DNA of 64,000 nt from a virus (taxonomy: Duplodnaviria > Heunggongvirae > Uroviricota > Caudoviricetes), in IMG/VR virus record IMGVR_UViG_3300020050_013619, positions 1-64,000 of that record, one strand, 5' to 3'. Below are positions 4,838 through 63,758 of the stretch, piece by piece (the stretch's first letter is position 1; each line of letters starts with the position of its first letter). The notes under the pieces were generated by a model, which worked only from the letters and a program-made list of their open reading frames with translations, had not been told where the DNA came from and searched no databases. The position numbers and the translations under genes were made by a program.

Positions 4838-4912
4838 TAATATTCCGTTGAAAAATAATTTTCACAAAGATATAATTAAATAATCTTAATCACAAATTTA
4901 ACATCTGTATTT
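4838..4912 (-). promoter_or_regulatory. early promoter region for the methyltransferase operon
   Basis: On the minus strand: TAAATTTG and TATCTTTG (TAnnTTTG-type -7 elements), the TGATTnnnATTATTTAAT box and the TTCAACGGAATAT leader motif. Confidence 0.5.
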
Positions 4913-4959
4913 TTAAAAAAATCAGATAATTTGCAGACAAACAAATCTGATTATCAATA

Positions 4960-5550
4960 ATGGCTGAATATATTGAATTACCGAGCAATAATCTTTACTC
5001 AAACGGATACCTAACGACACTTGACGACGGTGCTGTTGTCTTGGAGCGGAAACCCTTACGTATTGCGCCGCAAGAACAAGACCGTTGGCACATCGTTGAG
5101 TATGAGGATATGCTGGATGAATTGGCACATCGATATTACGGACAAATCGTTGACGATTCAGCTAAACTGTGGTGGATGATAGCCGATGCCAATGGACTGA
5201 CAAACCCTTTGGATTTGTCCAATAATATTGGCTCGTTGCTTTTGATTCCAGAGTATTTCAGAGTGCAACGATTGGCTTCAATTGACCAAACTGCCGATGA
5301 TACGGAACTACCCAATTACTTTCAAGTTGTTGGCAATCCACCTACGCCGATTAATCCACCAGACACACCAACCGAGGACGGTTCAGGTGTTGTTGATACA
5401 CCGTCTGAAAATGCGCCGCAATGGTTATTCTTAAAGCAGCCCAATGGAGGCTTTACGCTTGTTTCGGCTGACAATAACGGAATGCCAGAATTTACGCCTG
5501 CTAATCCGAACGATTTTGCTTCTTCGGTTATCTTTGAGGCAAAACCTTAG
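4960..5550 (+). CDS. hypothetical protein with Pro-rich C-terminal part (196 aa)
   Basis: Long ORF; NPPTPINPPDTPTEDGSG low-complexity segment. Confidence 0.45.
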   Translation: MAEYIELPSNNLYSNGYLTTLDDGAVVLERKPLRIAPQEQDRWHIVEYEDMLDELAHRYYGQIVDDSAKLWWMIADANGLTNPLDLSNNIGSLLLIPEYFRVQRLASIDQTADDTELPNYFQVVGNPPTPINPPDTPTEDGSGVVDTPSENAPQWLFLKQPNGGFTLVSADNNGMPEFTPANPNDFASSVIFEAKP

Positions 5551-5562
5551 TTTTTATCAAAA

Positions 5563-5601
5563 ATAAAAAGCCGTTATACCCCCTCAGTATAACGGCTTTG
5601 T
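5563..5601. terminator. bidirectional intrinsic terminator between convergent genes
   Basis: Stem GCCGTTATA/TATAACGGC with the CCCCCTCAG motif in the loop, followed by a T-run. Confidence 0.6.
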
Positions 5602-5615
5602 TTTTTACTCAAATA

Positions 5616-6512
5616 TCAAAACGGTAAATCCTTAGAACGAAAACCAGCCGCATTCTTATGTCCACCGCCTTTGCGACCCTCAAACTCAAATTGTGATGCC
5701 AGCTCTGCACAGTCAACAGGATTTTCCTTGTTTGCACCTTGACGCAGCGACACTTTCCAAGATTTTGTCTCATAAACATAATAAGCGAATGCCAATAAAT
5801 CGGGTTGCTCCTGGGCGTATCGTGGTGTGTTGTACCACATAGCACCATCGCCACCACCGATTGAAAGGAGTGTTTTATGACCCCGCCATTCAATGAGATT
5901 GGCAAACTTAGATTCCTTGTTGACCTGACTTTGTAAGTAGCCCAAAATGCAAACACCTTCGTGATATAGGCGCAAAACAGGAGCTTTTTCAATTGCCGCA
6001 AAATCACTTACTTTAGAGACCGCACCACGTACGGCATATTCAAAAGGCAATATTTCTGTTTCCCAATCATTTGAGCCAAAGCCATCAAACACATCATACC
6101 GACCAACCAATTCGACGAACTTAGGCTCTGTTTGATTGGGGTAGAAATACCGCCAAGTTAAACGGCACGCTGCCATTGTGCCGTACTTGATGATGCACAA
6201 GTCTTTGAGTCTGTCAAATGCTTCGTCATACGTTTTTTTGTGGTGGTCAATCCATGTCAACTGATTGAATATCGCTAATTCAACCATATCCTCCAACGGT
6301 AACGAAATATCCAGCATATAGACCAACGACCTGCGTGGAATGCTTTTGATTTCATCCAATGACCGACCGTAATCATAGCCGATTAGAACAACTTCAAAAT
6401 CAATTTCTAAAAGGGCTTTTTGGGCGATGTAGGCAGACAACAAACCGTCGTTGTCCGCATCGTGGTGAATGATATATACCTTACTCATTGTCAATAAAGT
6501 TTTTAAGTTCAA
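5616..6512 (-). CDS. DHH/DHHA1-family phosphoesterase (NrnA/RecJ-like nanoRNase or phosphodiesterase)
   Basis: Motif I IIHHDADNDG, DHH motif WIDHH, DHHA1 motif GGGHKNAAGF. Confidence 0.8.
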   Translation of the reverse strand: MNLKTLLTMSKVYIIHHDADNDGLLSAYIAQKALLEIDFEVVLIGYDYGRSLDEIKSIPRRSLVYMLDISLPLEDMVELAIFNQLTWIDHHKKTYDEAFDRLKDLCIIKYGTMAACRLTWRYFYPNQTEPKFVELVGRYDVFDGFGSNDWETEILPFEYAVRGAVSKVSDFAAIEKAPVLRLYHEGVCILGYLQSQVNKESKFANLIEWRGHKTLLSIGGGDGAMWYNTPRYAQEQPDLLAFAYYVYETKSWKVSLRQGANKENPVDCAELASQFEFEGRKGGGHKNAAGFRSKDLPF

Positions 6513-6711
6513 TAATCATTTTTACAAACTCATCTTTCATCAGTTTGATGTCGGCTGGCAGTATCCGAGCCGTACCAAACTGATTCATTTTTTGCGTTAA
6601 CTTGATGCGCGCCTCTTTGCCCAATGTGGGATACATGCGCTTTGCCAATTCCGAGCGTTTGATAAAATCGGGAATTTGCGGTTTTTCGTTCTTAGGTTTG
6701 TCCATATCCAT
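6481..6711 (-). CDS. hypothetical small protein (76 aa)
   Basis: ORF overlapping the DHH gene start by 32 nt, in the same operon. Confidence 0.35.
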   Translation of the reverse strand: MDMDKPKNEKPQIPDFIKRSELAKRMYPTLGKEARIKLTQKMNQFGTARILPADIKLMKDEFVKMIIELKNFIDNE

Positions 6712-8761: not shown

Positions 8762-8803
8762 CTCTTAGATATTTTAATTATTAAAAAAATATGATTTAGA
8801 TAT

Positions 8804-8840
8804 TCCGTTTTTTCTTTCACAAAGATATATCTGTTTGTTT
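8804..8840 (-). promoter_or_regulatory. early promoter (minus strand) for the 8761..5616 operon
   Basis: On the minus strand: TATATCTTTGTGAAAG (TAnnTTTG) followed by AAAAACGGAATATC. Confidence 0.45.
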
Positions 8841-16791: not shown

Positions 16792-16818
16792 TTTTAATAA
16801 TCAACGGAATATCAAATC

Positions 16819-18910: not shown

Positions 18911-19002
18911 GTCTTTATGACTTAGTAAAGGCTTAGACCTTTCGGAAAGAATCGGAAAGAAGTTGTAAAAATTATTAATTAATCAACGGAATATCATCAA
19001 TC

Positions 19003-21827: not shown

Positions 21828-22315
21828 TGAGTGTACGCAGAACAGGTAATTGGAGGGGTATATCGCGCTTCATGGGCGAATTACCTAAGACCTTACAGGA
21901 ATCTCGGCAACTGTCCTTGCGCCGTTGGTCACTCAAAGCAGAGGGATTGGCAAAAGGTCACATGAGTGCGCAGGACTTAGGCTGGACACCTTTAGCGGCA
22001 AAAACCGTTGCAGCGAAACTAAGGAAAGGGCAATCCGAATTAATACTCATTGCGACATCGTCTTATTTTCAGTCCATTACATCGTGGGCGACCAATGACA
22101 AGGCTTTGGTTGGTGTTCGGCGAGGCATTCGCGGCAAAGATGGGCAATTGATTGAAGTCGTTGCACGCACGCACGAGTTTGGCGCACCTGCTAAAAACAT
22201 TGTGGCACGTCCACTTTGGAAGCCTGTTTTAGACGAGACCATGAAGTGGCACAATAACAACAACCGACCTGAATATCTATTCAGATTGGCAGCTAAAAAA
22301 ATACTCAACGCATGA
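21827..22315 (+). CDS. hypothetical neck/tail-completion protein (162 aa)
   Basis: ATGA overlap with the upstream gene; position in the block. Confidence 0.4.
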   Translation: MSVRRTGNWRGISRFMGELPKTLQESRQLSLRRWSLKAEGLAKGHMSAQDLGWTPLAAKTVAAKLRKGQSELILIATSSYFQSITSWATNDKALVGVRRGIRGKDGQLIEVVARTHEFGAPAKNIVARPLWKPVLDETMKWHNNNNRPEYLFRLAAKKILNA

Positions 22316-22998
22316 CAACTTATTCGCTGGAGCAATTGGATCGTACGATTTTCGAACACCTACGCCTTGAGGTTGTGCGCGCGGGCTACCTGCCCGATAT
22401 TACGCAATACACAACAGGCACGGCTTGGCAGGCGGCACGCAATACACTGAGGGGTACAATCGGCGGTCAATTGATTGACGTATTTGGCGTAGGCAGTGGC
22501 GATGAGAGAGAGGAATTGACAGGTGCAAAAATCATTGTCAACCGCACAGATGAACGCAATGGAGACATTGGCGCAGGCGGTACAATTATGACACCTATTG
22601 TAGGTGGTTTTACGAAGTCCACCTTACCACAAACGTGTTCAAGCATCACTTATGAGATTGTTATCAATGCGGACAGCGTCAAGTATGAAAGGCTGATGTC
22701 AAACATTGTAAGTCGGGCATTTGGTAAGATGAAGCACATAGCGGTTGCCAATTCAAACGGCTCATTGAGTAGCACCCACAGGCTTTTTATTCGGTTGGTT
22801 CAAAAATTCGACCAATCTAATTTGAATTTTCTACAAAAACTATGCACTTTCATAGTGGACGATATATTCCTATCAACAGACGTGACGGTTAACGATGTGG
22901 ATATAGTGCCAATCAATTCGATTGAATTTGTGATTTACGCACGCAGCGTATCGGGTAAAATTCCCGAATCGCTTGTAACAACGGAATATCAAAATTAA
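22312..22998 (+). CDS. hypothetical structural protein (228 aa)
   Basis: ATGA overlap with the upstream gene; its 3' end encodes the CAACGGAATATCA motif. Confidence 0.4.
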   Translation: MTTYSLEQLDRTIFEHLRLEVVRAGYLPDITQYTTGTAWQAARNTLRGTIGGQLIDVFGVGSGDEREELTGAKIIVNRTDERNGDIGAGGTIMTPIVGGFTKSTLPQTCSSITYEIVINADSVKYERLMSNIVSRAFGKMKHIAVANSNGSLSSTHRLFIRLVQKFDQSNLNFLQKLCTFIVDDIFLSTDVTVNDVDIVPINSIEFVIYARSVSGKIPESLVTTEYQN

Positions 22999-39690: not shown

Positions 39691-39692
39691 AA

Positions 39693-41421: not shown

Positions 41422-41502
41422 AAATAAGAGTGTCCACGTCCCCCAATTCTGGTCACGACCTTACTGAAATTATCTGTCGGGAGTCGTGGACTATCGTGAT
41501 TT

Positions 41503-42786: not shown

Positions 42787-42946
42787 ATTGTTTAATTATT
42801 CAGTTTTAATGATACGTTTTACAGTTGCGATAATGATTAAGACCAGCAATTGAGCTGATAAAAAGGTAAACACAAACTTACCAAGCGTATCTCCTCTAAA
42901 AACAGAGAAAACTATACTTACTAAGCCTGTAATTAAATGCGTTGTT

Positions 42947-43183: not shown

Positions 43184-43191
43184 AACTGCTT

Positions 43192-43542
43192 TTATAAAAC
43201 TTGGTAATTAAATGATGATTTAAAGCACCCTTTGACATAAGCAAAGTCAGGATTGCCGAGGGTTGTGTAACCAGCTTTTACAGGCTTATTCATGCCCATT
43301 AGCATGATGAACATTTTTAGGTCGTTCAACTCACCTTTTCCGACTTGGTAAAACCCTTGTCTTTCGCCTGCCATAAAAGGTCTCAACCCTAATAATGTGT
43401 TTTCAGCAATAAGATATTTACCCGATACGTCATGGTAATACAGCACTTTCTCATCAGACTTTATAAGTTCTGATTTCATGGGCGTTGTATTGGTGGCGGT
43501 TGTTTCATTTTCTAATCCGTCGAAAATATTTGCTTTGCTCAT
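43192..43542 (-). CDS. hypothetical protein (116 aa)
   Basis: ORF only. Confidence 0.4.
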   Translation of the reverse strand: MSKANIFDGLENETTATNTTPMKSELIKSDEKVLYYHDVSGKYLIAENTLLGLRPFMAGERQGFYQVGKGELNDLKMFIMLMGMNKPVKAGYTTLGNPDFAYVKGCFKSSFNYQVL

Positions 43543-43578
43543 TTATTATAGTTTTAAAAAAGCTCCTATGTTATTAAT

Positions 43579-43932
43579 TTATTGTTGATTTATTTCCAAT
43601 ACTTCGCCTCTCAAGACAAATATTAAGTTTTGCAATTGGTGTATATATTGCACATTGAATATTATCTTGCTGTTGAACCAAAACGAATAAACTGGCTCAC
43701 TACCGTCGTTGTGGTCAAAGCTATAAAGTTGGACATTAGAAATCTTTTTCTGCCACTCCTCGGTTACAGGTATAGGCTCAATAATAACACCCGAAGCATC
43801 AATAAAACCTTTTACAGCATCGCTACCAGTTAATTCGAGTGCTTCAATACCATTTACTGACATAGCAGCAATTTTATAAATACCATTGCCACTTTTAACC
43901 AAATTGCCAATCATTAACTCATTTACATTCAT
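43579..43932 (-). CDS. paralog family member 1 of the tandem triplet
   Basis: MNVNELMIGNL...IPVTEEWQKKI...QYIHQLQNLIFVLRGEVLEI. Confidence 0.5.
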   Translation of the reverse strand: MNVNELMIGNLVKSGNGIYKIAAMSVNGIEALELTGSDAVKGFIDASGVIIEPIPVTEEWQKKISNVQLYSFDHNDGSEPVYSFWFNSKIIFNVQYIHQLQNLIFVLRGEVLEINQQ

Positions 43933-44366
43933 TCTTTAATAAATTTTAGTTCCTGCCTATCATTCACATAAAAGCAGATGTTTTGCAATTCATGTACATA
44001 ATCGCACCGAATAAGTGCCGCAAAGCCGTTTGGTTGAACGCCAAAATGTTCTTTATTGTGCTCATGGAAGCTGAACACAACTTTTGGATTAGTTGACAAT
44101 ACATAGATGTTACCATATTCATGCTTTAACTCGAATCCAAGATTTAACAGCAGTTCTTTTGTGATAGGTATGGGCTTGCAATTATCTAAATCAACGATAT
44201 AGCCTCGCTCAATTTTGTCGCCTCTATACGCATCAATTAACAGTTGACAGCCTTCATTTGTATCGCACCGCGTGAGGTGCTCATGGGGTTTAAATCCGTT
44301 AATTTTGGCAATCAGTCCTTCATCATCAATGATTAGGTTTCCAATTCTTAGTTCGTTTGCTTTCAT
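43929..44366 (-). CDS. paralog family member 2
   Basis: MKANELRIGNL...IPITKELLLNLGF...DYVHELQNICFYV; ATGA overlap with its neighbours. Confidence 0.5.
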   Translation of the reverse strand: MKANELRIGNLIIDDEGLIAKINGFKPHEHLTRCDTNEGCQLLIDAYRGDKIERGYIVDLDNCKPIPITKELLLNLGFELKHEYGNIYVLSTNPKVVFSFHEHNKEHFGVQPNGFAALIRCDYVHELQNICFYVNDRQELKFIKE

Positions 44367-44797
44367 GCTTTAATTAATATTAGTTCTTCACCTGCCAAGG
44401 CAAAGAACAAGTTTTGAATTTGATGGATAAATTGAACCTCTATGTATGAGTCTGCATCGTGAATATGAAAAATATTAAAGAGGTAACAACCATCTGTTTT
44501 GGACTTATAGATACCGTGATTTTCATTTACCCATGCAAATAGCTCGGGCGTGTATATAAACCCGAATCTTTTAAGCCACTCCTCAGTAATTGGAATAGCT
44601 TCAATGTACTTAATAAACTGATGAAAATCCTCGTAATATTGATTTGGCTTTCTTTCTAATTCAACCAAACTAATAGAGTATTCATCGTGCATTTCTGAAA
44701 TACCCCTTACGACAACAGGAATATCTTTCATGCCTGGATGATACTCTTTGTTGTTTATTGTCACTATGTTGCCTATCCTTAATTCTTCAGGTTTCAT
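44363..44797 (-). CDS. paralog family member 3
   Basis: MKPEELRIGNI...IPITEEWLKRFGF...QFIHQIQNLFFALAGEEL. Confidence 0.5.
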   Translation of the reverse strand: MKPEELRIGNIVTINNKEYHPGMKDIPVVVRGISEMHDEYSISLVELERKPNQYYEDFHQFIKYIEAIPITEEWLKRFGFIYTPELFAWVNENHGIYKSKTDGCYLFNIFHIHDADSYIEVQFIHQIQNLFFALAGEELILIKA

Positions 44798-44803
44798 AAC
44801 TTC

Positions 44804-45292
44804 TCATTTATCCAGCACAAAAAAATCATCATTGATTCTTTTGCACCACGTTCTATAATGCGATTTCCTAATTAGGCGTAAATCAACGCCCAGTTTCAAG
44901 ACTGAAAAAATATTATACTCGACCTTGATTGAACCATCACTCAGTTGATAGGCTTTAGTATAATCAAGTGTCTTTCCTATTCTCATTTCAGCAAATCGAG
45001 ATGCTTCAATCACGATAATGTTTGCAAAACGACTTGTCTTTTCAGTTGCGTTATTGTGGTAATGTTCGTTACCACCGACGTATGTTTTGATTTCGACAAT
45101 TTTAGTGATGCCGTTAAAGTTGCAAATAGCATCAAACTCGAACTTAACCTTGTCAATCACTACCTCTCGATTAGGCAATACATCACATTGATACGACAGC
45201 CAGCCACGAATAATATTTTCGATGTGCGTTGACAGGATATTGCGAATGAAGGATTTCTGACTGTTTGATTTGTTTAGATTTACTTTTCGCAT
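44804..45292 (-). CDS. hypothetical protein, possibly PD-(D/E)xK-like
   Basis: FDAIC...ITKIVEIKTY is weakly D...E-x-K-like; otherwise unassigned. Confidence 0.35.
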   Translation of the reverse strand: MRKVNLNKSNSQKSFIRNILSTHIENIIRGWLSYQCDVLPNREVVIDKVKFEFDAICNFNGITKIVEIKTYVGGNEHYHNNATEKTSRFANIIVIEASRFAEMRIGKTLDYTKAYQLSDGSIKVEYNIFSVLKLGVDLRLIRKSHYRTWCKRINDDFFVLDK

Positions 45293-45306
45293 GGGATTAA
45301 GACTTT

Positions 45307-45546
45307 TTAATCATTGATTTTTTGGTAATATTCAATGATGGTCGCCAACTCTTTTGCGTTGCATTGGCGTATCTCAATATCTTGTTTTTGTTGCGCCAAG
45401 GCATCTTTCCAAAAACTGACTAAATCTTTAGTCAGTTGCTCAAGAATGGCTTTTTGCTGTTTGAAGTCAAAGTTGTTGCAGATGTATGCAACTGTTTGTG
45501 TGGCATATTGAAGATGCGGCTCTTGTGGTACTGGGTCTCCTATCAT
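45307..45546 (-). CDS. hypothetical small protein (79 aa)
   Basis: On the minus strand, AATCAACGGAATAAATC directly precedes the ATG. Confidence 0.45.
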   Translation of the reverse strand: MIGDPVPQEPHLQYATQTVAYICNNFDFKQQKAILEQLTKDLVSFWKDALAQQKQDIEIRQCNAKELATIIEYYQKIND

Positions 45547-45569
45547 GATTTATTCCGTTGATTTTAAAT

Positions 45570-45833
45570 TTATTTTAAAAAATTGATTCCTTTTTCCGTT
45601 AACCCAACTTTCAAACGTTTGGCGTTTACGTGCGCACAAACGATATATTTATTGTCCTTCAGCCACTGATAGTGTTTAACTTGTAGCGTTCGGACATTGA
45701 GATAATGCGCCAAATCAACAAATACAAGCTGCGTACTGAGGCTTGATTTCTCGGCAATGTCATCCAAATATTTCCGTGCTGTTTTTTCCATTGACAACGA
45801 ATTTACAGAGTTCCAAAAATGACTCAAACACAA
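45570..45833 (-). CDS. hypothetical small protein (start uncertain)
   Basis: ORF; overlaps 45760..46104 in another frame. Confidence 0.3.
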   Translation of the reverse strand: MCLSHFWNSVNSLSMEKTARKYLDDIAEKSSLSTQLVFVDLAHYLNVRTLQVKHYQWLKDNKYIVCAHVNAKRLKVGLTEKGINFLK

Positions 45834-46104
45834 ACACGTCCCATCCTTCTGTCAACATGTGCATAATCAACTCAAAGTCTCTTTCTGTTTGCACAAAGCC
45901 TTTTAATTCAATTTTATGCGAATGAAAACCTTCGTTTAGGTCATATATATAGTAGTACGTTTTTGCGTAATTCGATACCTTATGTATGCCAATGCCTGCA
46001 AAAACACCATCCTTTACAAAAAGCAAAGGTTTTTTGTCATACTTCGCTTCACTTAATGCTTCATTCACGATTTTACGAAGGTTTGGCAGTTCAATTTTTT
46101 CCAT
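45760..46104 (-). CDS. hypothetical protein (114 aa)
   Basis: ORF only. Confidence 0.4.
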   Translation of the reverse strand: MEKIELPNLRKIVNEALSEAKYDKKPLLFVKDGVFAGIGIHKVSNYAKTYYYIYDLNEGFHSHKIELKGFVQTERDFELIMHMLTEGWDVFVFESFLELCKFVVNGKNSTEIFG

Positions 46105-46279
46105 GCGCTTTTTTACTATTTAAAAGATAATACAAAAAATAGATAATAAAAATATCATCAATTAGCCTTGCAACAACATAATCAAATAAGGTAAACTTGT
46201 GCGGTATAGGCAGTGTCCACGACCAAATTGTTATAACAAAGCCTATCAATGAAAAATGATAGTTCAAGTTGTTTTTCAT
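46091..46279 (-). CDS. small membrane protein (62 aa)
   Basis: Hydrophobic FSLIGFVITIWSW segment. Confidence 0.3.
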   Translation of the reverse strand: MKNNLNYHFSLIGFVITIWSWTLPIPHKFTLFDYVVARLIDDIFIIYFLYYLLNSKKAHGKN

Positions 46280-46746
46280 TTTGATTCCTCTAAAGCCAAA
46301 CCTTTTGAAATAAGACCCAACACATCAAATCGGCAGGATAAAAGGTATAAATGCACGCTCGTTGGTACTTTGATATTGCTTGGCGTTATTATCCAAATAG
46401 AACCCATATAGCCAATGCGAAGTGCTTCATTAAACCAATCATTTTCTATTGTAATCAATATAGAATTTGAGTAAACATCAAAACTGTAATCCGTTTCGGG
46501 ATAGGTTACTTCTGGGTGAATGATTCTTTTCAATACTTCAATCGCTTCATTTTTCTTCATATCTCTAATTAAACGTAAAATAGGCTTGACTACCGAGGGG
46601 TCAAAATTAGCCCGCTCACAAATCACTTTATTGGCGACAATGTCAACACCTTCAATGGTTGCAGGTGTGCCAACAGCCTTATCAGTAGAATCAAAAATCA
46701 TACATGGAAAGCCTATGTATAGAGCGAATTCAGATATTGAAATCAT
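46276..46746 (-). CDS. hypothetical protein (156 aa), first gene of the island
   Basis: ORF directly downstream of a minus-strand early promoter. Confidence 0.45.
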   Translation of the reverse strand: MISISEFALYIGFPCMIFDSTDKAVGTPATIEGVDIVANKVICERANFDPSVVKPILRLIRDMKKNEAIEVLKRIIHPEVTYPETDYSFDVYSNSILITIENDWFNEALRIGYMGSIWIITPSNIKVPTSVHLYLLSCRFDVLGLISKGLALEESK

Positions 46747-46774
46747 TAGCTTTTAATTTTCAACAAAGATAAAT

Positions 46775-46815
46775 TAAATAATTACAATCACAAAATTAAC
46801 ATCTTGAAAATCTAA
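46775..46815 (-). promoter_or_regulatory. early promoter (minus strand) for the 46746..41503 island
   Basis: On the minus strand: GTTAATTTTGTGATTGTAATTATTTAATTTA (TAATTTTG -7 element plus the box). Confidence 0.5.
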
Positions 46816-46860
46816 AAAAATCTATAAATTGACACATCTCATAATAATCTATCAATAGTC

Positions 46861-47496
46861 ATGCTTTTCAAAGATAAAATATTCAGCCTACTCGGTCCAA
46901 ACGAAAAAAGGACGGATAGTAATAAGAATTCAAGCGGCAAAGGCACGCTTGAACGCTACATGTCGGCTTTTGGCGATGATATTGATACGAATATTGTACC
47001 GCTCATCGAAAACTTGGTTCAAAACACCACCGATATAGAACTGATGTTTACACGGTTCTTAGATGTTCAAGAGGAAACGAGGGGTGTTTTACCGCTCTCT
47101 TTTTCGCGCGGCTCATCGGACGAGGAGGAACGTATCAAAGACGAGTGGATGCGTCGGCGACTGTTGCTACACATCGAAAAGATACTGGCTGTCAGAGGTA
47201 CAAAAAAAGGTTTTCAATTGCTTTTCAGATTGATTGACAGTACCATCACCGTTATCACCATCAACGAGGCTTTTTCGGAAAATTTCTACGACGAATCGGA
47301 GTTTGACGATGGATTGAAATTCGACGTATCTATTTGCTCTGAATGCCCTGTTTACTCGATTGTCATTGTATCGGATGGCACAACCGAACCAACGGACTAT
47401 ATCATCAAGTGCGCCAAATCAATCATCGCATTCAACCAGCCGATTGACGTAAAACTGGGTACAATCACATACAACGGGTTCGCCATTTCTCTATAA
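46861..47496 (+). CDS. putative baseplate wedge / tail-fibre-associated protein (211 aa)
   Basis: Resumes the late block after the island, immediately upstream of the fibre gene. Confidence 0.4.
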   Translation: MLFKDKIFSLLGPNEKRTDSNKNSSGKGTLERYMSAFGDDIDTNIVPLIENLVQNTTDIELMFTRFLDVQEETRGVLPLSFSRGSSDEEERIKDEWMRRRLLLHIEKILAVRGTKKGFQLLFRLIDSTITVITINEAFSENFYDESEFDDGLKFDVSICSECPVYSIVIVSDGTTEPTDYIIKCAKSIIAFNQPIDVKLGTITYNGFAISL

Positions 47497-47526
47497 TTCT
47501 CTATCATAATAATTCAACGGAATATC

Positions 47527-49266
47527 ATGCAAAAGCGTTTTTTCAATTATAAGGACATTATCAAATCGTTTGATGCCAATCAAAGGGATTTTGCCATTGC
47601 GCCGAGTGGCGTATATGCTGGCTTTGATGAAATACAAGATGCGTCGGTGGGCGAAATACCCCTTTCAAGTGGCGATGTCGGTATTCGGTTTTTGCACACC
47701 ACAACAGCGATGCGATATATTGATGATAACGGCGACGATGCTATGCTGTCATGCGTCAAGTCAGAGCAAGGCGCAATCATCACCGAAACTACACGCATCA
47801 CACTACCCATTACGTCAGACCCTACATTGGATCGTATTGATGCCATCGTGTTGCGGCACGCCTATACTGAAGTATCTGGCGGCGCAGCGGCAACGTATGA
47901 AGTTATACAAGGCACTGAGGGTGAAACCGTAGAACCAACAATTTCTATTGATACGGAGCGGACGGTTATTGGTTGGCTTTTGGTCAAAGCAGGTGCCGCA
48001 GATGCAAGCGACATGGTTTGGCTGCGGAAAGAAACACCACAGTTTGGCAACAAAGATTTTCGGCAGCATCAATTGTCACTCAAAGCCATGTTGTCCGTTG
48101 CGGAACATGATGCTGTTTTAACTTTCACCAGCAATGACTTAAATCTGCCATTTACGGGCAATATCTACAAGGTGAAAGCACGTGCAACAACAGGTCAAAA
48201 CATCGTTCATCAAATGCCAGCGCGCACACGCAAGGTTTTTGGTACGGATGAAGTTGGGGCGATTGTTTGGCTGCATGTAACGGATGATTCGGTGCCGTTT
48301 ATTCTCTATGATAAGGAGAACCTACTTGAAATGGGCGCAACAGAACCCGATAGCGGCTATAAGTGGATAAAGACAGGTGCAGGTAAAGAAATATCAGTAG
48401 CAGCGGGAGGTATCGTGCAACTGATTGAACGTACCGAGTTTTGGGAGGTAACGGGTGTTATAGATTCGGCAATACACCCTAATACTCTTGCTGATAAAAT
48501 CAATAACAAAGGCACATGGTGGCTTGAAGATGATTTTATTAGTGCTGTTCGTGCCTCACTTGGTCACACTTTAGTCATTCATGGGCGTAAGGCGGTCAAT
48601 GTCAATAGTTCAGGATTTATTGAAATTGGTTTAGCAGCAACACAACGCAATGTGTTTGAAATTACCGTACCAACGGGCGTGACAGATATTTTTGGGTTAG
48701 ATGAAACATTGAAATTTACAGACCTTATAACGGGTTATGGCGCAGAGGTCATATTGAGATTCGTAACGGTTACACCTGGACGAGCCTTTCTTCGCTTAGG
48801 CTCACAACCTAATCACTTCAAAGCACAAAACGGTTTTGATTACATTGTCAAGGCGGGGTCAATCGTTAAGTGTTTACAAACAGATACAGGGCTATTCATT
48901 ATTTCGGGTGATGCCTATGAGAAATGGATAACCCCCTCAGTACCTGGCACCGTATCAACGCTGATTCGCAACGGCGCATTCCGTTACAAGATTGGTGTGG
49001 ATGGTAAAATACAATTTGAAGGTTCTGTTGAGGTAGCCATTGGTGAGACAGCGGATATTTTGGTTTTACCAACGTCGCTTTTTGCATCGGAGAATCTTTT
49101 AGGCGTGCAGGAAATCAACGTTTTCCCACTTTCGCCAGCCGTTCCAAATGCTTACAGCCGTATGACTTACGCCAATGATGGCACAAATGTAACCTTTACG
49201 ATTGAAGCGGGTAGTGGCGCATCACAAACGTTCAATTTTAAGGGAACGTACATCAATTATCGGTAG
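47527..49266 (+). CDS. putative tail fibre protein (579 aa)
   Basis: Large beta-rich ORF; TTCAACGGAATATC directly precedes the ATG; terminator downstream. Confidence 0.5.
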   Translation: MQKRFFNYKDIIKSFDANQRDFAIAPSGVYAGFDEIQDASVGEIPLSSGDVGIRFLHTTTAMRYIDDNGDDAMLSCVKSEQGAIITETTRITLPITSDPTLDRIDAIVLRHAYTEVSGGAAATYEVIQGTEGETVEPTISIDTERTVIGWLLVKAGAADASDMVWLRKETPQFGNKDFRQHQLSLKAMLSVAEHDAVLTFTSNDLNLPFTGNIYKVKARATTGQNIVHQMPARTRKVFGTDEVGAIVWLHVTDDSVPFILYDKENLLEMGATEPDSGYKWIKTGAGKEISVAAGGIVQLIERTEFWEVTGVIDSAIHPNTLADKINNKGTWWLEDDFISAVRASLGHTLVIHGRKAVNVNSSGFIEIGLAATQRNVFEITVPTGVTDIFGLDETLKFTDLITGYGAEVILRFVTVTPGRAFLRLGSQPNHFKAQNGFDYIVKAGSIVKCLQTDTGLFIISGDAYEKWITPSVPGTVSTLIRNGAFRYKIGVDGKIQFEGSVEVAIGETADILVLPTSLFASENLLGVQEINVFPLSPAVPNAYSRMTYANDGTNVTFTIEAGSGASQTFNFKGTYINYR

Positions 49267-51610: not shown

Positions 51611-51682
51611 TAAACATTAGGCAATCAGACTGCCAACAACGGAATATCAAGTAATTACTCATATTTTTAAAACGTTTTAGAG

Positions 51683-52228: not shown

Positions 52229-52320
52229 AGTTATATTCTTTTTTTTATTTTGAGAGAGAGATATTAAATTGACTATATTTGCAAGATGATTAATAATCAA
52301 CGGAATATCTTTTTAACATT

Positions 52321-52364
52321 AAAACGCTTTATTATACATTTTGTATAATAAGGCGTTTTTTCAT
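52321..52364 (+). terminator. strong hairpin with T-run upstream of the HU-like gene
   Basis: 16-bp stem AACGCTTTATTATACA/TGTATAATAAGGCGTT, loop TTT, then TTTTTT. Confidence 0.55.
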
Positions 52365-52381: not shown

Positions 52382-52693
52382 ATGATTACTCAAAAACATT
52401 TATTGGATATTGTAGCCAAAAAAAAAGGATTTGGTCGATATACGCTCGAATATTATACCAATTGCTTATTGATGGAAATTGCCGAACAACTAAAAAAAGG
52501 TGAAACGGTTGATTTAGGTGAATTTGGGCAGTTCAAGCCATCGGCAGTCAAAGAGCATGTACTTTCCTTCAATAGTAAAGTCACCGTTCCAGCCCATACC
52601 AAAATCACTTTTTCAAATAGTGATATTCTGAAAGGATACATCAACGATGATATTAAGCTGTTTAAGATGGAAACAAAAAAACCCCCTCAGTAA
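52382..52693 (+). CDS. HU/IHF-like DNA-binding protein
   Basis: VDLGEFGQFKP...VTVPAHTKITFSNSDILK matches the HU-family core (L.GFG.F...IP....V.F...LK). Confidence 0.55.
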   Translation: MITQKHLLDIVAKKKGFGRYTLEYYTNCLLMEIAEQLKKGETVDLGEFGQFKPSAVKEHVLSFNSKVTVPAHTKITFSNSDILKGYINDDIKLFKMETKKPPQ

Positions 52694-52705: not shown

Positions 52706-52740
52706 ACTAATCAACGGAATATCAAATCAACTACTAGGAG

Positions 52741-54178: not shown

Positions 54179-54227
54179 TAAATTTGTGACTGAAAATAAA
54201 TAATAAAATTCAACGGAATATTTAAAC
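54179..54227 (+). promoter_or_regulatory. early promoter plus leader motif
   Basis: TAAATTTGTGACTGAAAATAAATAATAAAATTCAACGGAATATTT. Confidence 0.5.
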
Positions 54228-54237: not shown

Positions 54238-54912
54238 ATGTATAAAAATGTGTCTGAAAAATACATCAACGCCTGCGGTTCTTCAATCGCATTGGTTACG
54301 ACCAGAATAAAACAGGGTTCTGTTTTTAACCGTCATTACAGTCATGTATCAAAATCGGTAATTGAGCCAGTTGCAAACGCCATTACAGTTATCGGCTATG
54401 AATCACATGATGTGGTTTATTTCGGCGAACATGATAAAATGCCCACTATTGAGCGTCGGTACAATCTTATTTATGAGGATAATACTGAGGGGGGATTGGG
54501 TCGCACAACGGATTATACAGAATTGGTTAATTGCCCATCTTGGGTTGTGGGTATGAATTTTTCTAGTTTTTCTGATTTCCTACGCTTTTACGGTAAAATG
54601 GAATCAAACAAAGACTACGTGCGCTACGCCGATAAAATCGCTGCCTACTACACAGAAAAATTATCTGAACGCGATTGTATTGATGTTCAGTTGACAAGCC
54701 TGCAAACATGGGCTTTCAACGATAATTTTGTAAAGGGTCGTTACATCAAAAACATTATTATGGCGACTATGAACAGTGGTGATGCCGTTATTTCAGAGTG
54801 TGGCAATATCGTTCGCCGATTGGATAAATTGGGGCGATTGGATAAAATACCGCAGTTTATGGAACTGCTTGCAACCAAAATTAATATCAAATTATTCAAT
54901 GAGAATATTTGA
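54238..54912 (+). CDS. hypothetical protein (224 aa)
   Basis: ORF after a promoter. Confidence 0.45.
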   Translation: MYKNVSEKYINACGSSIALVTTRIKQGSVFNRHYSHVSKSVIEPVANAITVIGYESHDVVYFGEHDKMPTIERRYNLIYEDNTEGGLGRTTDYTELVNCPSWVVGMNFSSFSDFLRFYGKMESNKDYVRYADKIAAYYTEKLSERDCIDVQLTSLQTWAFNDNFVKGRYIKNIIMATMNSGDAVISECGNIVRRLDKLGRLDKIPQFMELLATKINIKLFNENI

Positions 54913-54931: not shown

Positions 54932-54978
54932 TAAATTTGTGATTATATTTATTTAATAATTTCAACGGAATATCAAAA
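54932..54978 (+). promoter_or_regulatory. early promoter plus leader motif
   Basis: TAAATTTGTGATTATATTTATTTAATAATTTCAACGGAATATCAAAA. Confidence 0.45.
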
Positions 54979-55119: not shown

Positions 55120-55156
55120 ATAATATTTTTTTAACAATTCAATCAACGGAGTATTT

Positions 55157-57670: not shown

Positions 57671-57952
57671 CGTTTTTGTTAAAATTTGACAAAAATATAT
57701 AATCATTATATTTGCACACTTGAAAAAATTATGTATTTTTGCTCACAATTTTAACACAAAATAAAAACATTGATGCTCCGCTTGAAGCTCCGCATTGATA
57801 TGTTCATGGGATTATAATTTGTTGTTGGCGGGCTTTTACGCTTTTATGTAAAAGCCCATCTTTTGAAAAGTAGCCGAACGGCTTTTAAGATAGTTTTTGT
57901 GTTTATTTGTTTTTGATTAGTCGGCGATTGCCTTTGTGTAGTCGCAAACTTT

Positions 57953-58027
57953 AGGAAAGTAGCTTAAAGGTAGAGCATGAGGTAATATATAAACCAAAGA
58001 GCGTTGGTTCGAATCCAGCCTTTCCTA
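57953..58027 (+). tRNA. tRNA-like element with a non-canonical anticodon arm (possible pseudo-tRNA)
   Basis: 7-bp acceptor stem AGGAAAG/CTTTCCT, D-arm GCTT-AAAGGTA-GAGC, T-arm GTTGG-TTCGAAT-CCAGC; 26 nt between the D and T arms do not fold into a canonical anticodon stem. Confidence 0.4.
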
Positions 58028-58189
58028 CATGAGTGTTCGTCCATAGTAAGTTTGTAATAAGTTGTAAGGTAACGGTGGTTATTTGCTGCCGTTACTTTTT
58101 GAAAAGATGTAGATTGTTTTCATTTGGTTTTTTGGGGTTATACGAGCCGTTTTTTCGGAATTGTTAAAGCGGTTCGTTTTTTTAAAAAT

Positions 58190-58263
58190 GGCGGTGTGGA
58201 GTAATGGTAGCTTGCCGAGGCTCATAATCTCGGAGTGTGTAGGTTCGATGCCTGCTGCCGCCA
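58190..58263 (+). tRNA. tRNA-Met/Ile2-type (anticodon CAT)
   Basis: Acceptor GGCGGTG/TGCCGCC, anticodon arm CGAGG-CTCATAA-TCTCG, T-arm GTAGG-TTCGATG-CCTGC; strong similarity to bacterial tRNA-Met. Confidence 0.7.
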
Positions 58264-58386
58264 CAAGACAACTTGATGAAAGGGGCGTACGGTTTTTTGA
58301 ATGTTGGAATGGTTTGAATTCGCTGTTTCAATTTCTTAACGAACGTGGTTAGGATAAAAAAGACTAAACGCCCCGCTTTTTAAAAT

Positions 58387-58468
58387 TGCATAGATGCAGA
58401 TATTGGTTAGCCGCGCAGAGTACATTTCTCTGTCCGAGAGGTTGTAGGTTTGATTCCTGCCTATGCAA
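58387..58468 (+). tRNA. tRNA (isotype uncertain; loop TACATTT, long variable region)
   Basis: Acceptor TGCATAG/CTATGCA, T-arm GTAGG-TTTGATT-CCTGC, anticodon stem CAGAG/CTCTG; the D-stem has an A-C mismatch and the variable region is ~11 nt. Confidence 0.45.
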
Positions 58469-58686
58469 CAACGCATAACAACAAAGGGGCTGCACGTCAG
58501 AAGTGACTGCGACAAATTGAATTGAGCGAATAGGGTTGATTGCCGCATTTAAAAGCGGATATAGTACCATCGTTGGTCTTTGGCTTTTTCTGTTTATGCC
58601 ATTGAAGCACACCAAAACAGAGGATTCAAGGCGTTTAAGGCAGCCACATAATTTTTACTATTCACCAACTATAAATTAATTGAGAG

Positions 58687-59457: not shown

Positions 59458-59505
59458 TTTTTGTAGTTTAAAAATCCTATTTTATAATTTCTCAACGGAA
59501 TATCA

Positions 59506-60342: not shown

Positions 60343-60385
60343 TAAATTTGTGATTGAAATTAAATAATTCAACGGACTATCAATA
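60343..60385 (+). promoter_or_regulatory. early promoter plus leader motif
   Basis: TAAATTTGTGATTGAAATTAAATAATTCAACGGACTATCA. Confidence 0.5.
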
Positions 60386-60401: not shown

Positions 60402-61232
60402 ATGGAAAAGAGGAAGAACGGCACGCTGTTAAAGTATCCCATTACGGACGAATTCCTTGAATTCATGCGTCAGAATTACTTAATCAAAACCAACAAGCAG
60501 TTATTGGAAATGATAAGTCAAAAGCCTGAATGGTCATGGTGTAATTTTGGCGCATTGACAGCGATTAAGCACCGTTACAGATTTATCAAGCAGGAGCAGG
60601 TGAATTACACGCCCGAAGAAATACAGTTTGTCAAGGACAACTATTTGACAATGGGCGATGTAGAAATGGCGCAAATTTTAGGACGCAAGTTCAAAAGCCT
60701 GCACAAATTACGGCGTGTCACTCTGAACTTGCACAGAGATAAAGAAAGTTTAGCAGTGCTTATGAAGCAAGTTGCCCAAAAAGGACACGAAGGCAGAGCG
60801 AGAAAGATGTCAGAAGGAACATTTTACAACCCACGTTACAGGCTTTTAGGCGAAATTTATAGAAATAAGTGCAGCCGTAATTATTGGCTCATAAAGCCCA
60901 GCAGCGATAAGCTGTCAAGACCGATTTATCTACATCGCTTCCTTTGGGAGCGTGAATTCGGTCCTGTTCCGAAAGGTTACGTGATTCGTTTTAAAAACGG
61001 CATCATCCCCGATGACCCCCTCAGTATCACAACCGATATTTTAGAGTGCGTTACAAATGGCGAACACGCTCAAAAAGTCACTCAATTGATGAGTGATAGA
61101 TACTTGGCTGGTCGCTTTCACTACAAAGTCAGAGGTATTGATTTGGCAGCATTGAAAGCATCGGGCTTACTGGATGCCAAACGCCAGCAAATAGAAATAA
61201 GTCGAAAAATTCATTCATTCAATAACAAATAA
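60402..61232 (+). CDS. HNH-like (possibly degenerate) endonuclease-domain protein (start adjusted to the ATG after the leader)
   Basis: IYLHRFLWEREFGPVPKGYVIRFKNG resembles the HNH_3 HR..we...G..p.g core, but the second His is not evident. Confidence 0.4.
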   Translation: MEKRKNGTLLKYPITDEFLEFMRQNYLIKTNKQLLEMISQKPEWSWCNFGALTAIKHRYRFIKQEQVNYTPEEIQFVKDNYLTMGDVEMAQILGRKFKSLHKLRRVTLNLHRDKESLAVLMKQVAQKGHEGRARKMSEGTFYNPRYRLLGEIYRNKCSRNYWLIKPSSDKLSRPIYLHRFLWEREFGPVPKGYVIRFKNGIIPDDPLSITTDILECVTNGEHAQKVTQLMSDRYLAGRFHYKVRGIDLAALKASGLLDAKRQQIEISRKIHSFNNK

Positions 61233-61747: not shown

Positions 61748-61806
61748 CTTTTTTCCCCCCCTCAGTATTTTTTTTTCAATATCAACGGAGTATCAATATC
61801 TAACAA

Positions 61807-62859
61807 ATGTCAAAATTAAAAAAAGAAGTAGGGGTATTACACCCCGAACAAAAAGAACTTATAAGTCTCTTTGAACAAGCTGCTTATCGGCATTCCTATT
61901 GGGATACGTTCAATACGCTTCTCGACTACGGTATCAGTCAATACATCTTTACAGGCTTTACAAAATCCGATGATTTTCAATTCGACAGCAATTGGAATGA
62001 TAAGGAAATAGGGCTATTTCCTAAAATGCTGGATGAAGTCATCCGCTTAAACCGTGAACGGTGTCGTCTGTGGACAGGTCAAAGCGGTTGGTATGATGCC
62101 TTTGGGTGTTTATTTGAATCACTCGTTGGTAATTTTGGCAAATCCGCCATGGGTCAATTCTTCACACCTGAAGTTATGTGTGATTTAATGGCTCAAATAG
62201 TCATTGGTAGCAGTGATGGCGAGAACAGTATTGGTGAATTGGGCGACATCTTAACAGCTGTTGACGGTAATATCGGACGGCAAAAAACACAGTACAAACC
62301 CGAGACAATAGCCGAACCTGCCTGTGGTTCTGGTCGCTTAATACTTGCTGCCAACAATATCAACCCTGCGTTGTACATCGTCGCCAACGACCTTGATAAG
62401 GTGTGCGCCAAAATGTGCGCGCTCAATATGTGCCTAAACGGTGCTATTGGTGAGGTGAGTTGCAACGATGGTCTTTTTGCGACAGAAAACAATTTTAGAT
62501 TCGCTTACCGTGTTGTGCCACTTACTTCAATCATCACAGACAGTTTTTCTTCACTGCATTTTCTGAAAATGGTCATGCCAAGTGTGGTCAAGCAATACTG
62601 CTTAATACCTATGCAATTTAAGGATTGCCGCTACAACGATGAAAAAGTCTATGCCGAACAAAACAGGAAACATAAGGAGCAGCAAGAAAGTTTGGCGGCA
62701 ATGCGAGAGCAACACGACGCACATAGAAAAGCCATTCATCCAGATACTTTTCAAGGTGTTTTGTTTGAAGCGGAAAAAGTCGCCAAGGCAGCAAAACCCA
62801 AAGCGGCAAATAAGCAAGTTCAAAAAATATCTTTTGAACCATTACCAACACTGTTTTAA
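61807..62859 (+). CDS. N6-adenine DNA methyltransferase-like protein (HsdM/gamma-class N-terminal half, lacking a canonical NPPF/DPPY motif)
   Basis: FFTPEV motif, SAM motif I EPACGSG, CAKMCALNMCLNG (a.mN..l.G) as in HsdM-type MTases; no (N/D/S)PP(Y/F) found downstream. Confidence 0.55.
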   Translation: MSKLKKEVGVLHPEQKELISLFEQAAYRHSYWDTFNTLLDYGISQYIFTGFTKSDDFQFDSNWNDKEIGLFPKMLDEVIRLNRERCRLWTGQSGWYDAFGCLFESLVGNFGKSAMGQFFTPEVMCDLMAQIVIGSSDGENSIGELGDILTAVDGNIGRQKTQYKPETIAEPACGSGRLILAANNINPALYIVANDLDKVCAKMCALNMCLNGAIGEVSCNDGLFATENNFRFAYRVVPLTSIITDSFSSLHFLKMVMPSVVKQYCLIPMQFKDCRYNDEKVYAEQNRKHKEQQESLAAMREQHDAHRKAIHPDTFQGVLFEAEKVAKAAKPKAANKQVQKISFEPLPTLF

Positions 62860-62869
62860 CAGGCTTATA

Positions 62870-63112
62870 ATGACAAACAATAATCTCGTTATTTATCCTT
62901 TTGCGCCACGTGAAACGATTTTTTATTTTGAAGTCAAGTTACCGTATCAGAAGGGTGTGAATCAGTATTACAGAAAGATGGGTATTGTAGAAATTAAAAT
63001 CAATCCACGATATGGCGATAATGAGAAAACGGCATGGAATAAAATAAAAATGCTTTATCCACAGAGTAACGCTATTCATAAGTTTGTGAAAATGAAAGAA
63101 AGCGATACGTAA
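62870..63112 (+). CDS. hypothetical small protein (80 aa; start adjusted to ATG at 62870)
   Basis: The upstream in-frame portion of the track ORF overlaps the MTase-like gene; an ATG sits 10 nt after its stop. Confidence 0.35.
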   Translation: MTNNNLVIYPFAPRETIFYFEVKLPYQKGVNQYYRKMGIVEIKINPRYGDNEKTAWNKIKMLYPQSNAIHKFVKMKESDT

Positions 63113-63124
63113 AAAAATATAAAT

Positions 63125-63646
63125 ATGAAACTTGATGATTATTTAAGTATCGAAAATATTGCTAAAATCAATACAATAGAGCAATCATTTTTTAGCCAAA
63201 ATACAGGCGAATCTGCCAATAATTGCAACTGTAATGAGTGTCAAAATATGTGTCGTCGGTGCGCCTGTTTGGGTACACCTATTGATATTTTAAAACTGTG
63301 TGAAGCTGGTTATGCTGACAGATTATCTATGACTAAGTGGATGGTTGGTTATAACTGGGGCGCAGTTGTCAACGGTGCGCCAGTTGGACCAATAGACATG
63401 ATGCAAGCAACCATTAGACCCGATGGTTCATGTAATTTCTTTGACAAAGCAACAGGCAAATGTGAACTACATGATTTAGGCTTAAAGCCTACTGAGGGGG
63501 TGTGGTCTTCGTGTAAAAAAGATGTAGGCAACGGGAAGCCTACATTGCCATTGACATTGGCGGTTGCATTAACATGGCAGAGTAGTCACAACTTACCCGT
63601 GTGGTTAAAGATAATGCGATACACTAAAAGTTATGACAAAAAATAA
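63125..63646 (+). CDS. Cys-rich hypothetical protein (173 aa)
   Basis: NCNCNECQNMCRRCAC plus further Cys residues. Confidence 0.4.
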   Translation: MKLDDYLSIENIAKINTIEQSFFSQNTGESANNCNCNECQNMCRRCACLGTPIDILKLCEAGYADRLSMTKWMVGYNWGAVVNGAPVGPIDMMQATIRPDGSCNFFDKATGKCELHDLGLKPTEGVWSSCKKDVGNGKPTLPLTLAVALTWQSSHNLPVWLKIMRYTKSYDKK

Positions 63647-63758
63647 ATAATTTGCATAATTTGCAGCGTCAAAATTACTTATTTAATTTTGGCAAATATA
63701 AGCCTTTGGGCTTTCAACGGAATATCAATTATTTTCTCATCAACGGAATATCAATCAA

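Follow-up and report, generated by a model that had tools for sequence, protein, structure and literature searches.

The DNA considered here is a 64-kb window (the whole stretch of 64,000 nucleotides, positions 1 to 64,000 of the IMG/VR record IMGVR_UViG_3300020050_013619) from an uncultivated Bacteroidota myovirus, in which a short leader motif, WWTCAACGGAATATCAA, precedes early and late genes alike. The phage encodes small and large terminase subunits, a portal protein fused to a MuF-like domain, a prohead protease, and capsid, sheath, tube, baseplate J and tape measure proteins; a replication set made up of a primase, an AAA_24 ATPase, an SSB-like protein, an exonuclease and an O-like initiator; and, additionally, two DNA methylases, a dCTP deaminase, GroES, an HU/IHF-like protein and two tRNAs. 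The leader motif is a 17-base asymmetric, non-palindromic site of ~25 bits, represented by 22 copies across the window compared with ~0.3 expected by chance. The initial annotation had described a start-adjacent motif before both early and late genes, and this is confirmed by the site search and by the distances to the ATG codons.

The window is a strain variant of the Joint Genome Institute (JGI) contig Ga0206648_1000027 (75.9 kb), with 99.2–99.9% identity. No cultured phage is closely related to it; megablast gave no match in the public phage collections, the capsid search of IMG/VR yielded no relative, and two scans of public collections for the contig ends gave no match. There is no terminal overlap in the JGI contig, so that the genome is not shown to be complete. 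A Bacteroidota host fits both the Bacteroidota-type promoters of the phage and the binning of the contig of one relative with a Saprospiraceae genome.

The excess of the motif is evident under each of the definitions used. The WTCAACGGANTATYA pattern has 13 exact matches in the window, compared with 0.00 expected, and TTCAACGGAATATCA, with at most two mismatches, has 18, compared with 0.29 expected. The set of 22 sites consists of the matches to the core CAACGGANTAT with no more than one mismatch, retained only where they precede a gene; searching with this core adds the copies at 596, 8810, 45560 and 55144. The motif is present at every position listed in the initial annotation, which missed only the copy at 594–608 (+). 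In the alignment of the 22 sites, the conserved block covers positions −3 to +13, counted from the C of CAACGG, with 11 positions that are almost invariant, whereas upstream of it no element is kept at a fixed distance and the flank is merely A/T-rich. Four extra copies are found in the same genome outside the window, for a total of ~26, and an exact motif scan of the public phage collections returned single chance matches only.

The placement of the sites is highly regular. The orientation is that of the downstream gene in all 22 cases, 21 sites are intergenic or overlap a stop codon, and at 21 sites the next ATG is the start of a called open reading frame (ORF), with genes called by a simple first-ATG rule; at the exception, 52296–52310, the next ATG opens a 4-codon mini-ORF only. 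The distances from the TAT of the motif to the ATG are 1–8 nt at eleven sites and 13–38 nt at ten (1, 2, 2, 3, 4, 4, 5, 6, 6, 8, 13, 14, 16, 17, 21, 21, 22, 32, 35, 37 and 38 nt among the measured gaps). The range of 0–25 nt previously given for this distance holds for 16 of the 22 sites; the distances reach 38 nt and, in one case, ~71 nt. In the spacers of at least 45 nt (n = 15, with one length, that at the 22979 site, mis-measured because the site overlaps the upstream gene), the motif is found near the ATG end, at a mean relative position of 0.24 (P = 8e-5 compared with uniform placement). No start codon begins before motif position +12. Two exact cores also occur within genes, in the sense orientation and without the conserved flanks (CAACGGACTAT at 47388–47402 (+) in gene 46861–47496, and CAACGGATTAT at 54504–54518 (+) in gene 54238–54912); ~0.15 such cores are expected from base composition, and their status is uncertain. 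The only matches to Rfam are two tRNAs, and none of its RNA families coincides with the motif.

In the early regions, the motif follows promoters of the Bacteroidota type, with TTTG at −33 and TAnnTTTG at −7. Eight exact intergenic TAnnTTTG boxes in the window precede the motif by 9–24 nt and two more pairs lie outside; ten motif sites in all (nine by another count) are located 9–30 nt downstream of an exact box; the claim that the motif in early operons is downstream of this box is thus borne out by the measured distances. On the minus strand, the copy at 4838–4852 is 14 nt past a TATCTTTG −7 box and 14 nt before ATG 4825, which opens a 48-aa ORF followed by the C5-methylase operon; the initial annotation had assigned this copy to the gene start at 4701, but the methylase ATG is not the next one. 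The promoter and motif block at 4838–4902 is identical among strain variants, which diverge 6 nt past the motif core, into different small ORFs. Also on this strand, the copy AAACGGAATAT at 8798–8812 is 9 nt past a TATCTTTG box and 38 nt before ATG 8761 (a 48-aa ORF, then the primase operon), and the copy at 38502–38516 is 11 nt past a TACCTTTG box and 21 nt before ATG 38482 of a PAPS-reductase-like gene. The TAAATTTG box precedes three plus-strand copies: at 54209–54223 (24 nt past the box, which is here the GTTAAATTTGTGA block, and 16 nt before ATG 54238), at 54961–54975 (23 nt past the box, 5 nt before ATG 54979) and at 60368–60382 (19 nt past the box, 21 nt before ATG 60402 of the HNH gene). 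The tandem copies at 63713–63727 and 63739–63753 (+) are 23 nt past a TAATTTTG box and 6 nt before ATG 63758 of the O-like replication initiator gene (369 aa, running past the end of the window), the upstream copy being 32 nt from the ATG. Behind the TAnnTTTG boxes, the motif spans roughly +1 to +30 of the predicted transcript, which is operator territory and, at the same time, 5′ untranslated region (UTR). In the relatives L120, L220 and L218 (designated here by locus number), a TTTG box is found 4–8 nt before the motif of the capsid gene.

The other copies precede genes of diverse function, including those for the major virion proteins. On the plus strand, the motif is found at 16800–16814, 6 nt before ATG 16819 of the prohead protease-like gene, in a 27-nt spacer; at 18982–18996, 8 nt before ATG 19003 of the major capsid gene; at 22977–22991, within the last codons of gene 22312–22998 and 17 nt before ATG 23007; at 30220–30234, 4 nt before ATG 30237 of the tail sheath gene, in a 118-nt spacer; and at 32786–32800, 4 nt before ATG 32803 (282 aa). 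Farther along this strand, the final A of the copy at 47513–47527 is the A of ATG 47527 of a 579-aa fibre-like gene, the copy at 51635–51649 is 35 nt before ATG 51683, that at 52710–52724 is 22 nt before ATG 52745 (50-aa ORF), that at 55142–55156 (CAACGGAGTAT) is 2 nt before ATG 55157 of the AAA_24 ATPase gene, that at 59491–59505 is 2 nt before ATG 59506 (240 aa), and that at 61781–61795 is 13 nt before ATG 61807 of the N6-methylase gene. The copy AACAACGGAATATTT at 594–608 (+), 37 nt before ATG 644, is within segment 1–1401, which is inverted compared with three other assemblies of the same phage (L127, L128 and L129); the inversion breakpoint truncates a Band_7 gene (254 aa here, 328 aa elsewhere), and the inversion is either real or an assembly artefact at the contig end. 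On the minus strand, the copy CAACGGAATAA at 45548–45562, 3 nt before ATG 45546, is inside an operon that is transcribed from the motif-less promoter at 46771–46800.

This promoter, GTTAATTTTGTGA followed by TATCTTTG on the minus strand, drives a 156-aa ORFan, and is one of four host-type promoters that lack the motif, along with those at 53118 and 53602 and the tRNA promoter near 57707; the predicted leader at the motif-less promoter of gene 46746 is ~10 nt. The genes that follow the strong plus-strand terminators at 14082, 20707, 32268, 49307 and 60259 also lack the motif, and four late sites (16802, 18984, 22979 and 30222) fall within units that are bounded by terminators. Because there are motif-less genes after strong terminators and a motif-less tRNA cluster with a TATATTTG box, the motif does not mark the start of transcription units.

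These observations bear directly on the late-promoter role that was among the three functions initially proposed for the motif. Under this interpretation, the motif would be a phage-specific core promoter, with the start site inside or just after it, read by the host RNA polymerase together with an unrecognised phage factor and yielding near-leaderless mRNAs of highly expressed genes. Lineage-specific, highly conserved promoter-like motifs are indeed typical of phages with their own transcription specificity, such as the T7-type promoters, the T4 late promoter TATAAATA and the promoters of Thermus phage phiYS40, which are likewise short, lineage-specific and located directly ahead of genes; the middle and late promoters of such Thermus phages adjoin the start codon and give rise to leaderless mRNAs. 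The tandem copies at 63713/63739 and in the relative L121, the behaviour of the sheath and tube genes and of the protease and the 153-aa gene as motif-led units, and the constraint that no start codon precedes position +12 are all compatible with a promoter, as are the TATAAT-like AACTTATAATAC boxes located 8–13 nt before the capsid ATG in distant relatives, and the leader copy at 52296–52310 could, with its hairpin and T-run, be a small-RNA unit. However, neither an RNA polymerase nor a sigma factor domain was detected with Pfam and PHROGs in the ~85–90 kb examined, a search that found no ribosomal protein S21 or RNA-binding domain either, although small divergent factors could escape it. Furthermore, ten sites are located directly behind a good host-type promoter, so that the motif follows promoters rather than replacing them; it is missing after strong terminators and from the tRNA genes; and at three sites the ATG comes 1–2 nt past the TAT, too close for transcription to begin downstream of a −10-like element. 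Given the different motif of the relatives, the plasmid module described below, the motif-less genes after terminators and the lack of a detected polymerase or sigma factor, the late-promoter option is weakened, and a core promoter is an improbable identity for the motif.

The comparison with related phages is informative with regard to the factor that would recognise the motif. Capsid homologues are few, and the relatives are known from structural-gene fragments only. In L218 (87% capsid identity), an identical TCAACGGAATATCAA precedes the protease and capsid genes, whereas the flanks and the spacing have diverged. In L120, L121 and L220 (60–63%) and L123 (43%), the WWTCAACGGAATATCAA motif is absent and (CT)ATCACTAATACTTAAT is found instead, at the protease, capsid, 371-aa and sheath genes, where it precedes the ATG by 1–15 nt; at one gene ATCACTAATACTTAAT forms a tandem pair (tandem copies are seen in L121), and L120 carries its own motif type also at the junction that matches ATG 23007. 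Intermediate forms are found in L219 (66%; TTACGAAATATCAAA) and L221 (49%; AACGGAATAA, also represented as ACTTAATAACGGAATAAATTA). The motif types have the part ATCA...AATA in common and differ in the remainder. A motif beside the start codon is thus retained at the same junctions, but its sequence changes from lineage to lineage, which is a signature, as read from the sequences, of a cis site that co-evolves with a lineage-specific phage factor. It is very probable that the motif is a cis-acting site for a phage-encoded factor of this kind, a statement that is common to the operator, translation, promoter and HU/IHF interpretations. Farther away, among 40 distant relatives (30–34% capsid identity), exact 9-mer enrichment reveals no strong upstream repeat except in L131 (identical to L120), and only weak AACTT(T)A(T)AA boxes are present. 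A family-wide ‘AATAC’ promoter box at the capsid gene was considered and rejected: in L191 and L201, which use Shine–Dalgarno sequences, GGAATAC represents the last codons of the upstream gene (Glu-Tyr-stop).

The turnover of the motif between relatives also argues against pairing with the conserved host rRNA. A substitute for Shine–Dalgarno pairing that depends on host rRNA or on a host factor, with no phage factor involved, would agree with the ribosome-binding-site position of the motif at half of the sites, but in close relatives, the hosts of which are probably related, these positions are occupied by an unrelated sequence. With E. coli rRNA as a proxy, the motif pairs with 16S rRNA at −9.1 kcal/mol, compared with a shuffle mean of −10.5 kcal/mol, that is, there is no complementarity beyond that of shuffles, nor is there any to the 3′ tail, for which a Bacteroidota sequence was used. 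Both motif types were compared with E. coli 16S rRNA, and with the 16S 3′ tail, and pair no better than shuffles; one marginal match to E. coli 23S rRNA (reached by 5 of 200 shuffles) has no bearing on initiation. With no 16S pairing found and with a motif that differs among relatives, mechanisms based on host rRNA pairing are weakened, and a purely host-directed mechanism is most unlikely.

A role in translation that is mediated by the phage itself is the main rival to the interpretation favoured below, and corresponds to the translation-initiation enhancer of the initial annotation. The motif would then act in the mRNA leader, taking up the larger part of a very short 5′ UTR, and an RNA-binding factor specified by the phage would recognise it and promote or gate the loading of ribosomes at the first AUG. 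A precedent comes from the start-associated sequences (SAS) of cluster K mycobacteriophages, a 13-bp asymmetric repeat that is present in 11–19 copies in one orientation, 3–9 bp before the ATG, and has no known function; some SAS are preceded by a promoter-containing element, the extended SAS, or ESAS (PMC3203893, PMC11373665, PMC12699233). The motif would be the counterpart of SAS in a host without Shine–Dalgarno pairing. This interpretation gives the best account of the tight and conserved adjacency to the ATG (11 of the 22 sites within 8 nt, the bias toward the ATG end of long spacers, and the equal adjacency of the ATCACTAATACTTAAT type in relatives) and of the preference for major virion genes. 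It is also consistent with the identity of the next ATG as a gene start at 21 of the 22 sites, with GGA-to-AUG distances of 5–12 nt at 11 sites, in the range of a ribosome-binding site, with the location of the early-gene motifs downstream of promoters and hence in the transcript, with motifs that are internal to terminator-bounded operons, before the capsid, sheath, protease, tape measure and fibre genes, and with the lack of the motif at tRNA genes.

Several features of the sites do not agree with a translation signal. At ten sites, the distance is 13–38 nt and at one it is ~71 nt with a hairpin in between, too far for ribosome positioning; the motif is missing from the tail tube gene, although as much tube as sheath protein is needed; there is no complementarity to 16S rRNA (E. 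coli proxy); the wholesale change of the motif would require a co-evolving factor, and no RNA-binding domain was found; and the two in-gene cores and the leader copy serve no start codon. SAS themselves differ from the motif in that they carry an AGGAG Shine–Dalgarno core, whereas the motif has no rRNA complementarity, and in that they are confined to non-structural genes and kept across subclusters, whereas the motif is found also before structural genes and is replaced in relatives. Taken together, these points make the translation-linked interpretation possible but doubtful. A bolder form of it, in which the motif is an RNA tag that forms nearly all of the 5′ UTR, and in which a phage factor recognises the tag and either recruits ribosomes or spares the tagged mRNAs during host shut-off, should be regarded with still greater reserve; it would amount to a virus-specified translation-initiation code that changes between related phages, in a phylum without Shine–Dalgarno initiation.

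One candidate for a phage protein that binds DNA at the motif is encoded in the window itself. The HU/IHF-like gene (52382–52693) has a copy of the motif in its own leader, at 52296–52310 (+), 16 nt past a TATATTTG box and ~71 nt before the gene, with an intervening hairpin at 52321–52360 (18 bp followed by a T-run, −21 kcal/mol, z = −6.8). The protein might bend DNA at gene starts and thereby regulate them architecturally, which is a variant of the DNA-binding interpretation. The motif fits the E. coli IHF consensus, WATCAANNNNTTR, at 8 of the 9 specified positions (WATCAACGGAATA), and it has an A/T-rich upstream flank. This match was noticed post hoc and is expected by chance at an estimated rate of ~1%; moreover, the motif type of the relatives fits the IHF consensus poorly, and eleven invariant positions exceed the usual indirect readout of IHF-type proteins. 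Recognition of the motif by the HU/IHF-like protein therefore appears quite unlikely.

The lifestyle of the phage provides a different context for the motif. The contig Ga0206652_1000465 (locus L223), from a strain variant, extends past the end of the JGI contig, beyond the left end of the window, and contains, at L223 11800–19200, a plasmid module with a KilA-N gene, a ParA/MipZ-type ATPase and a Rep3 initiator. Five 19–20-nt iterons, TTTGGAGTTTTAGTCATAG, precede Rep3, with inverted copies directly before rep; an 8-nt-period repeat adjoins parA; and a dense CACTTCGC repeat array is located at L223 18925–19142. On one side, this block is flanked by the tape measure gene, with a motif 4 nt before its ATG, and on the other side by a GTTAAATTTGTGA promoter followed by a motif; because motif-bearing phage genes are present on both flanks, the par/rep block is the phage's own and not an assembly chimera. 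There is no motif site in the 8-kb par/rep block itself. The phage is a phage-plasmid, and its gene content points to lysogeny. An IS605 TnpB (Cas12f-like) gene is present in one strain variant (L128/L223, with TnpB at L223 10001–11341) and an IS1595 transposase gene in the structural region of the relative L121 (1252–2298); from these insertion sequences (IS), a prolonged intracellular residence seems likely. In the same phylum, crAssphage was proposed earlier to live as a phage-plasmid (PMC10983915).

Two additional observations concern the same strain variants. Upstream of a 173-aa gene, at L223 16955–17065 (−), a cluster of ACGCAAT/ACGCAG repeats (CAACGCAATAATCACGCAATGCAACGCAG...) accompanied by a 20-nt palindrome probably serves as the operator for a different regulator, in the block adjoining Rep3. 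Between 30217 and 53125 (from the capsid to the 173-aa gene), the window is ~300 nt longer than the JGI record; the corresponding change of the coordinate offset (7975 and 7675) represents an indel between strain variants.

The interpretation favoured here, albeit tentatively, is that the motif represents dispersed operator- or stoperator-like sites of a phage repressor, so that the phage-regulator binding site becomes the preferred one among the three roles initially proposed. A regulator that the phage itself makes would recognise the motif in DNA, and this regulator would most likely be an immunity (master) repressor, the phage being a prophage of the plasmid type. The copies located a few to ~25 nt past the −7 box would act as operators that overlap the transcription start and block RNA polymerase, whereas those inside operons, directly before gene starts, would act as stoperators similar to those of phage L5, that is, as one-orientation roadblocks that keep the lytic genes silent during plasmid carriage. 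In a host without Shine–Dalgarno sequences, leaders are presumably short, so that a copy that overlaps the start of transcription, or that occupies the final roadblock position, would land beside the ATG; given short leaders in this phage, ATG adjacency can be reconciled with a repressor. An asymmetric 17-bp site of ~25 bits, far better conserved than sigma-type promoter elements, argues for a repressor, as do the copies that have no start codon to serve, namely the leader copy before the terminator-like hairpin and the two in-gene cores. Overall, a regulator-site network would explain the high information content of the motif, its asymmetry and strict orientation, its promoter position, its turnover, the motif-free par/rep block and the plasmid-prophage lifestyle. 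The sequences themselves document the sites, with their orientation, positions and lineage-specific turnover, and the plasmid module; protein binding, action at the DNA rather than the RNA level and repression are deduced from them.

A close known counterpart of such a network is the stoperator system of mycobacteriophage L5, in which an asymmetric 13-mer recurs more than 20 times, always in one orientation, within promoters and small gaps between genes (PMC9283540, PMC5712189), and, as in the present case, the consensus differs between related, heteroimmune cluster A phages (PMC3029335, PMC6550527). The shared features are the number (more than 20), size (13–17 bp), asymmetry, placement in promoters and short intergenic regions and single orientation of the sites (PMC9283540, PMC3029335, PMC6550527, PMC5712189), a consensus that differs between related phages with one half in common, and the existence, among L5-type phages, of members that are extrachromosomal prophages with par genes. 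The differences are that no repressor homologue is recognised here, that the host phylum and the phage type (a myovirus here) are not the same, and that the sites described here are pressed to the start codons even in long spacers and favour major virion genes.

Phage P1, the late genes of which are controlled through Lpa, provides a second comparison. It is a plasmid-prophage myovirus with 22 dispersed asymmetric 17-bp C1 operators, ATTGCTCTAATAAATTT (PMC8546580). The P1 genome is of ~90–100 kb, and the phage described here has ~26 asymmetric 17-bp sites along with Rep, iterons and ParA. In contrast, there is no sequence relationship between the two, and the P1 operators overlap promoters of early functions, whereas the sites described here also precede the capsid, sheath and tape measure genes. 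Compared with the phage-specific promoters, the system differs in that no polymerase or sigma factor gene was found and that the motif trails host-type promoters and is absent after terminators. The motif belongs to a known kind, the dispersed asymmetric regulatory repeats of temperate phages, but extends it to another phylum and another type of phage, and combines features of two systems: stoperator-like orientation, promoter placement and lineage-specific consensus on the one hand, and SAS-like closeness to the start codon on the other.

The repressor interpretation has to be held against a series of observations that speak the other way. No repressor or other binding protein was found in searches of nearly all ORFs with Pfam and PHROGs; PDB sequence searches with four candidate proteins gave no usable match; and for the 156-aa ORFan, a low-confidence candidate for the regulator, the AlphaFold model is unusable, with a predicted local distance difference test (pLDDT) score of 52. 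A roadblock would not require so tight an adjacency to the ATG, with half of the sites within 8 nt and P = 8e-5 in long spacers, and this adjacency is kept in relatives even in spacers of 160–210 nt. Among late genes, the sites are found preferentially at those for major virion proteins (protease, capsid, sheath, tape measure and fibre), which resembles an expression signal, and the late-operon heads at 4960, 8971, 38624 and 46861 have no site, so that they would need other control. Finally, lysogeny is deduced from gene content only, and the genome is not closed.

Apart from the leader motif, the window contains a second over-represented word, CCCCTCAGTA, with 26 exact copies (for example, at 5580+, 10034+, 15568−, 32756+, 52683+ and 61758+); CCCCCTCAGTA, within one mismatch, has 28 copies compared with 0.2 expected. 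The copies of CCCCTCAGTA are on both strands, 23 of the 26 are in coding regions, the flanks are not conserved, and the antisense copies are all in one codon phase. This word is also present in L120, L121, L218, L220 and L221, including relatives with a different leader motif, and looks like a DNA-level site involved in nicking, modification or recombination. A further element, the box AAAAAATC(T/A)(G/A)TAAATTG, is located upstream of genes 4960, 38624 and 46861 (within 4903–4959, 38564–38623 and 46801–46860), where there is no leader motif; on these plus-strand late operons that diverge from early promoters, it may define a separate class of late promoters. The 1-kb non-coding stretch at 57671–58686 contains two tRNAs (57953–58027, identified by Rfam only, and tRNA-Met at 58190–58264), several hairpins and a possible third tRNA-like element near 58390–58470, and is driven by the TATATTTG box near 57707, without the leader motif.

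Among the other genes, four small ORFs at 35041–46746 (−) in the window, along with A2 members, match phrog_10066 (function unknown; best E = 6.5e-23) and are a paralogous family. At the contig end of L125 (14313–15080), a gene with a Hint/intein domain, similar to the intein regions of a helicase and a terminase, adjoins a T5orf172/MUG113 endonuclease gene; these and the HNH gene of the window (60402–61232) represent several homing-type elements.

The regulation of Bacteroidota phages and of their plasmid-type prophages is almost uncharted. Under either the repressor or the translation interpretation, the motif flags the true start codons and the operon structure in this group of phages and supplies a defined 17-bp bait for finding the binding factor. 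If the motif is a translation element, it would reveal a way in which ribosomes are guided by a phage where the host makes no use of Shine–Dalgarno pairing and would shed light on the unexplained SAS of mycobacteriophages. If it is recognised by a repressor, a genome-wide silencing network in the style of P1 and L5 would operate in a Bacteroidota phage-plasmid, and the motif variants would mark immunity groups that can be read from metagenomes.

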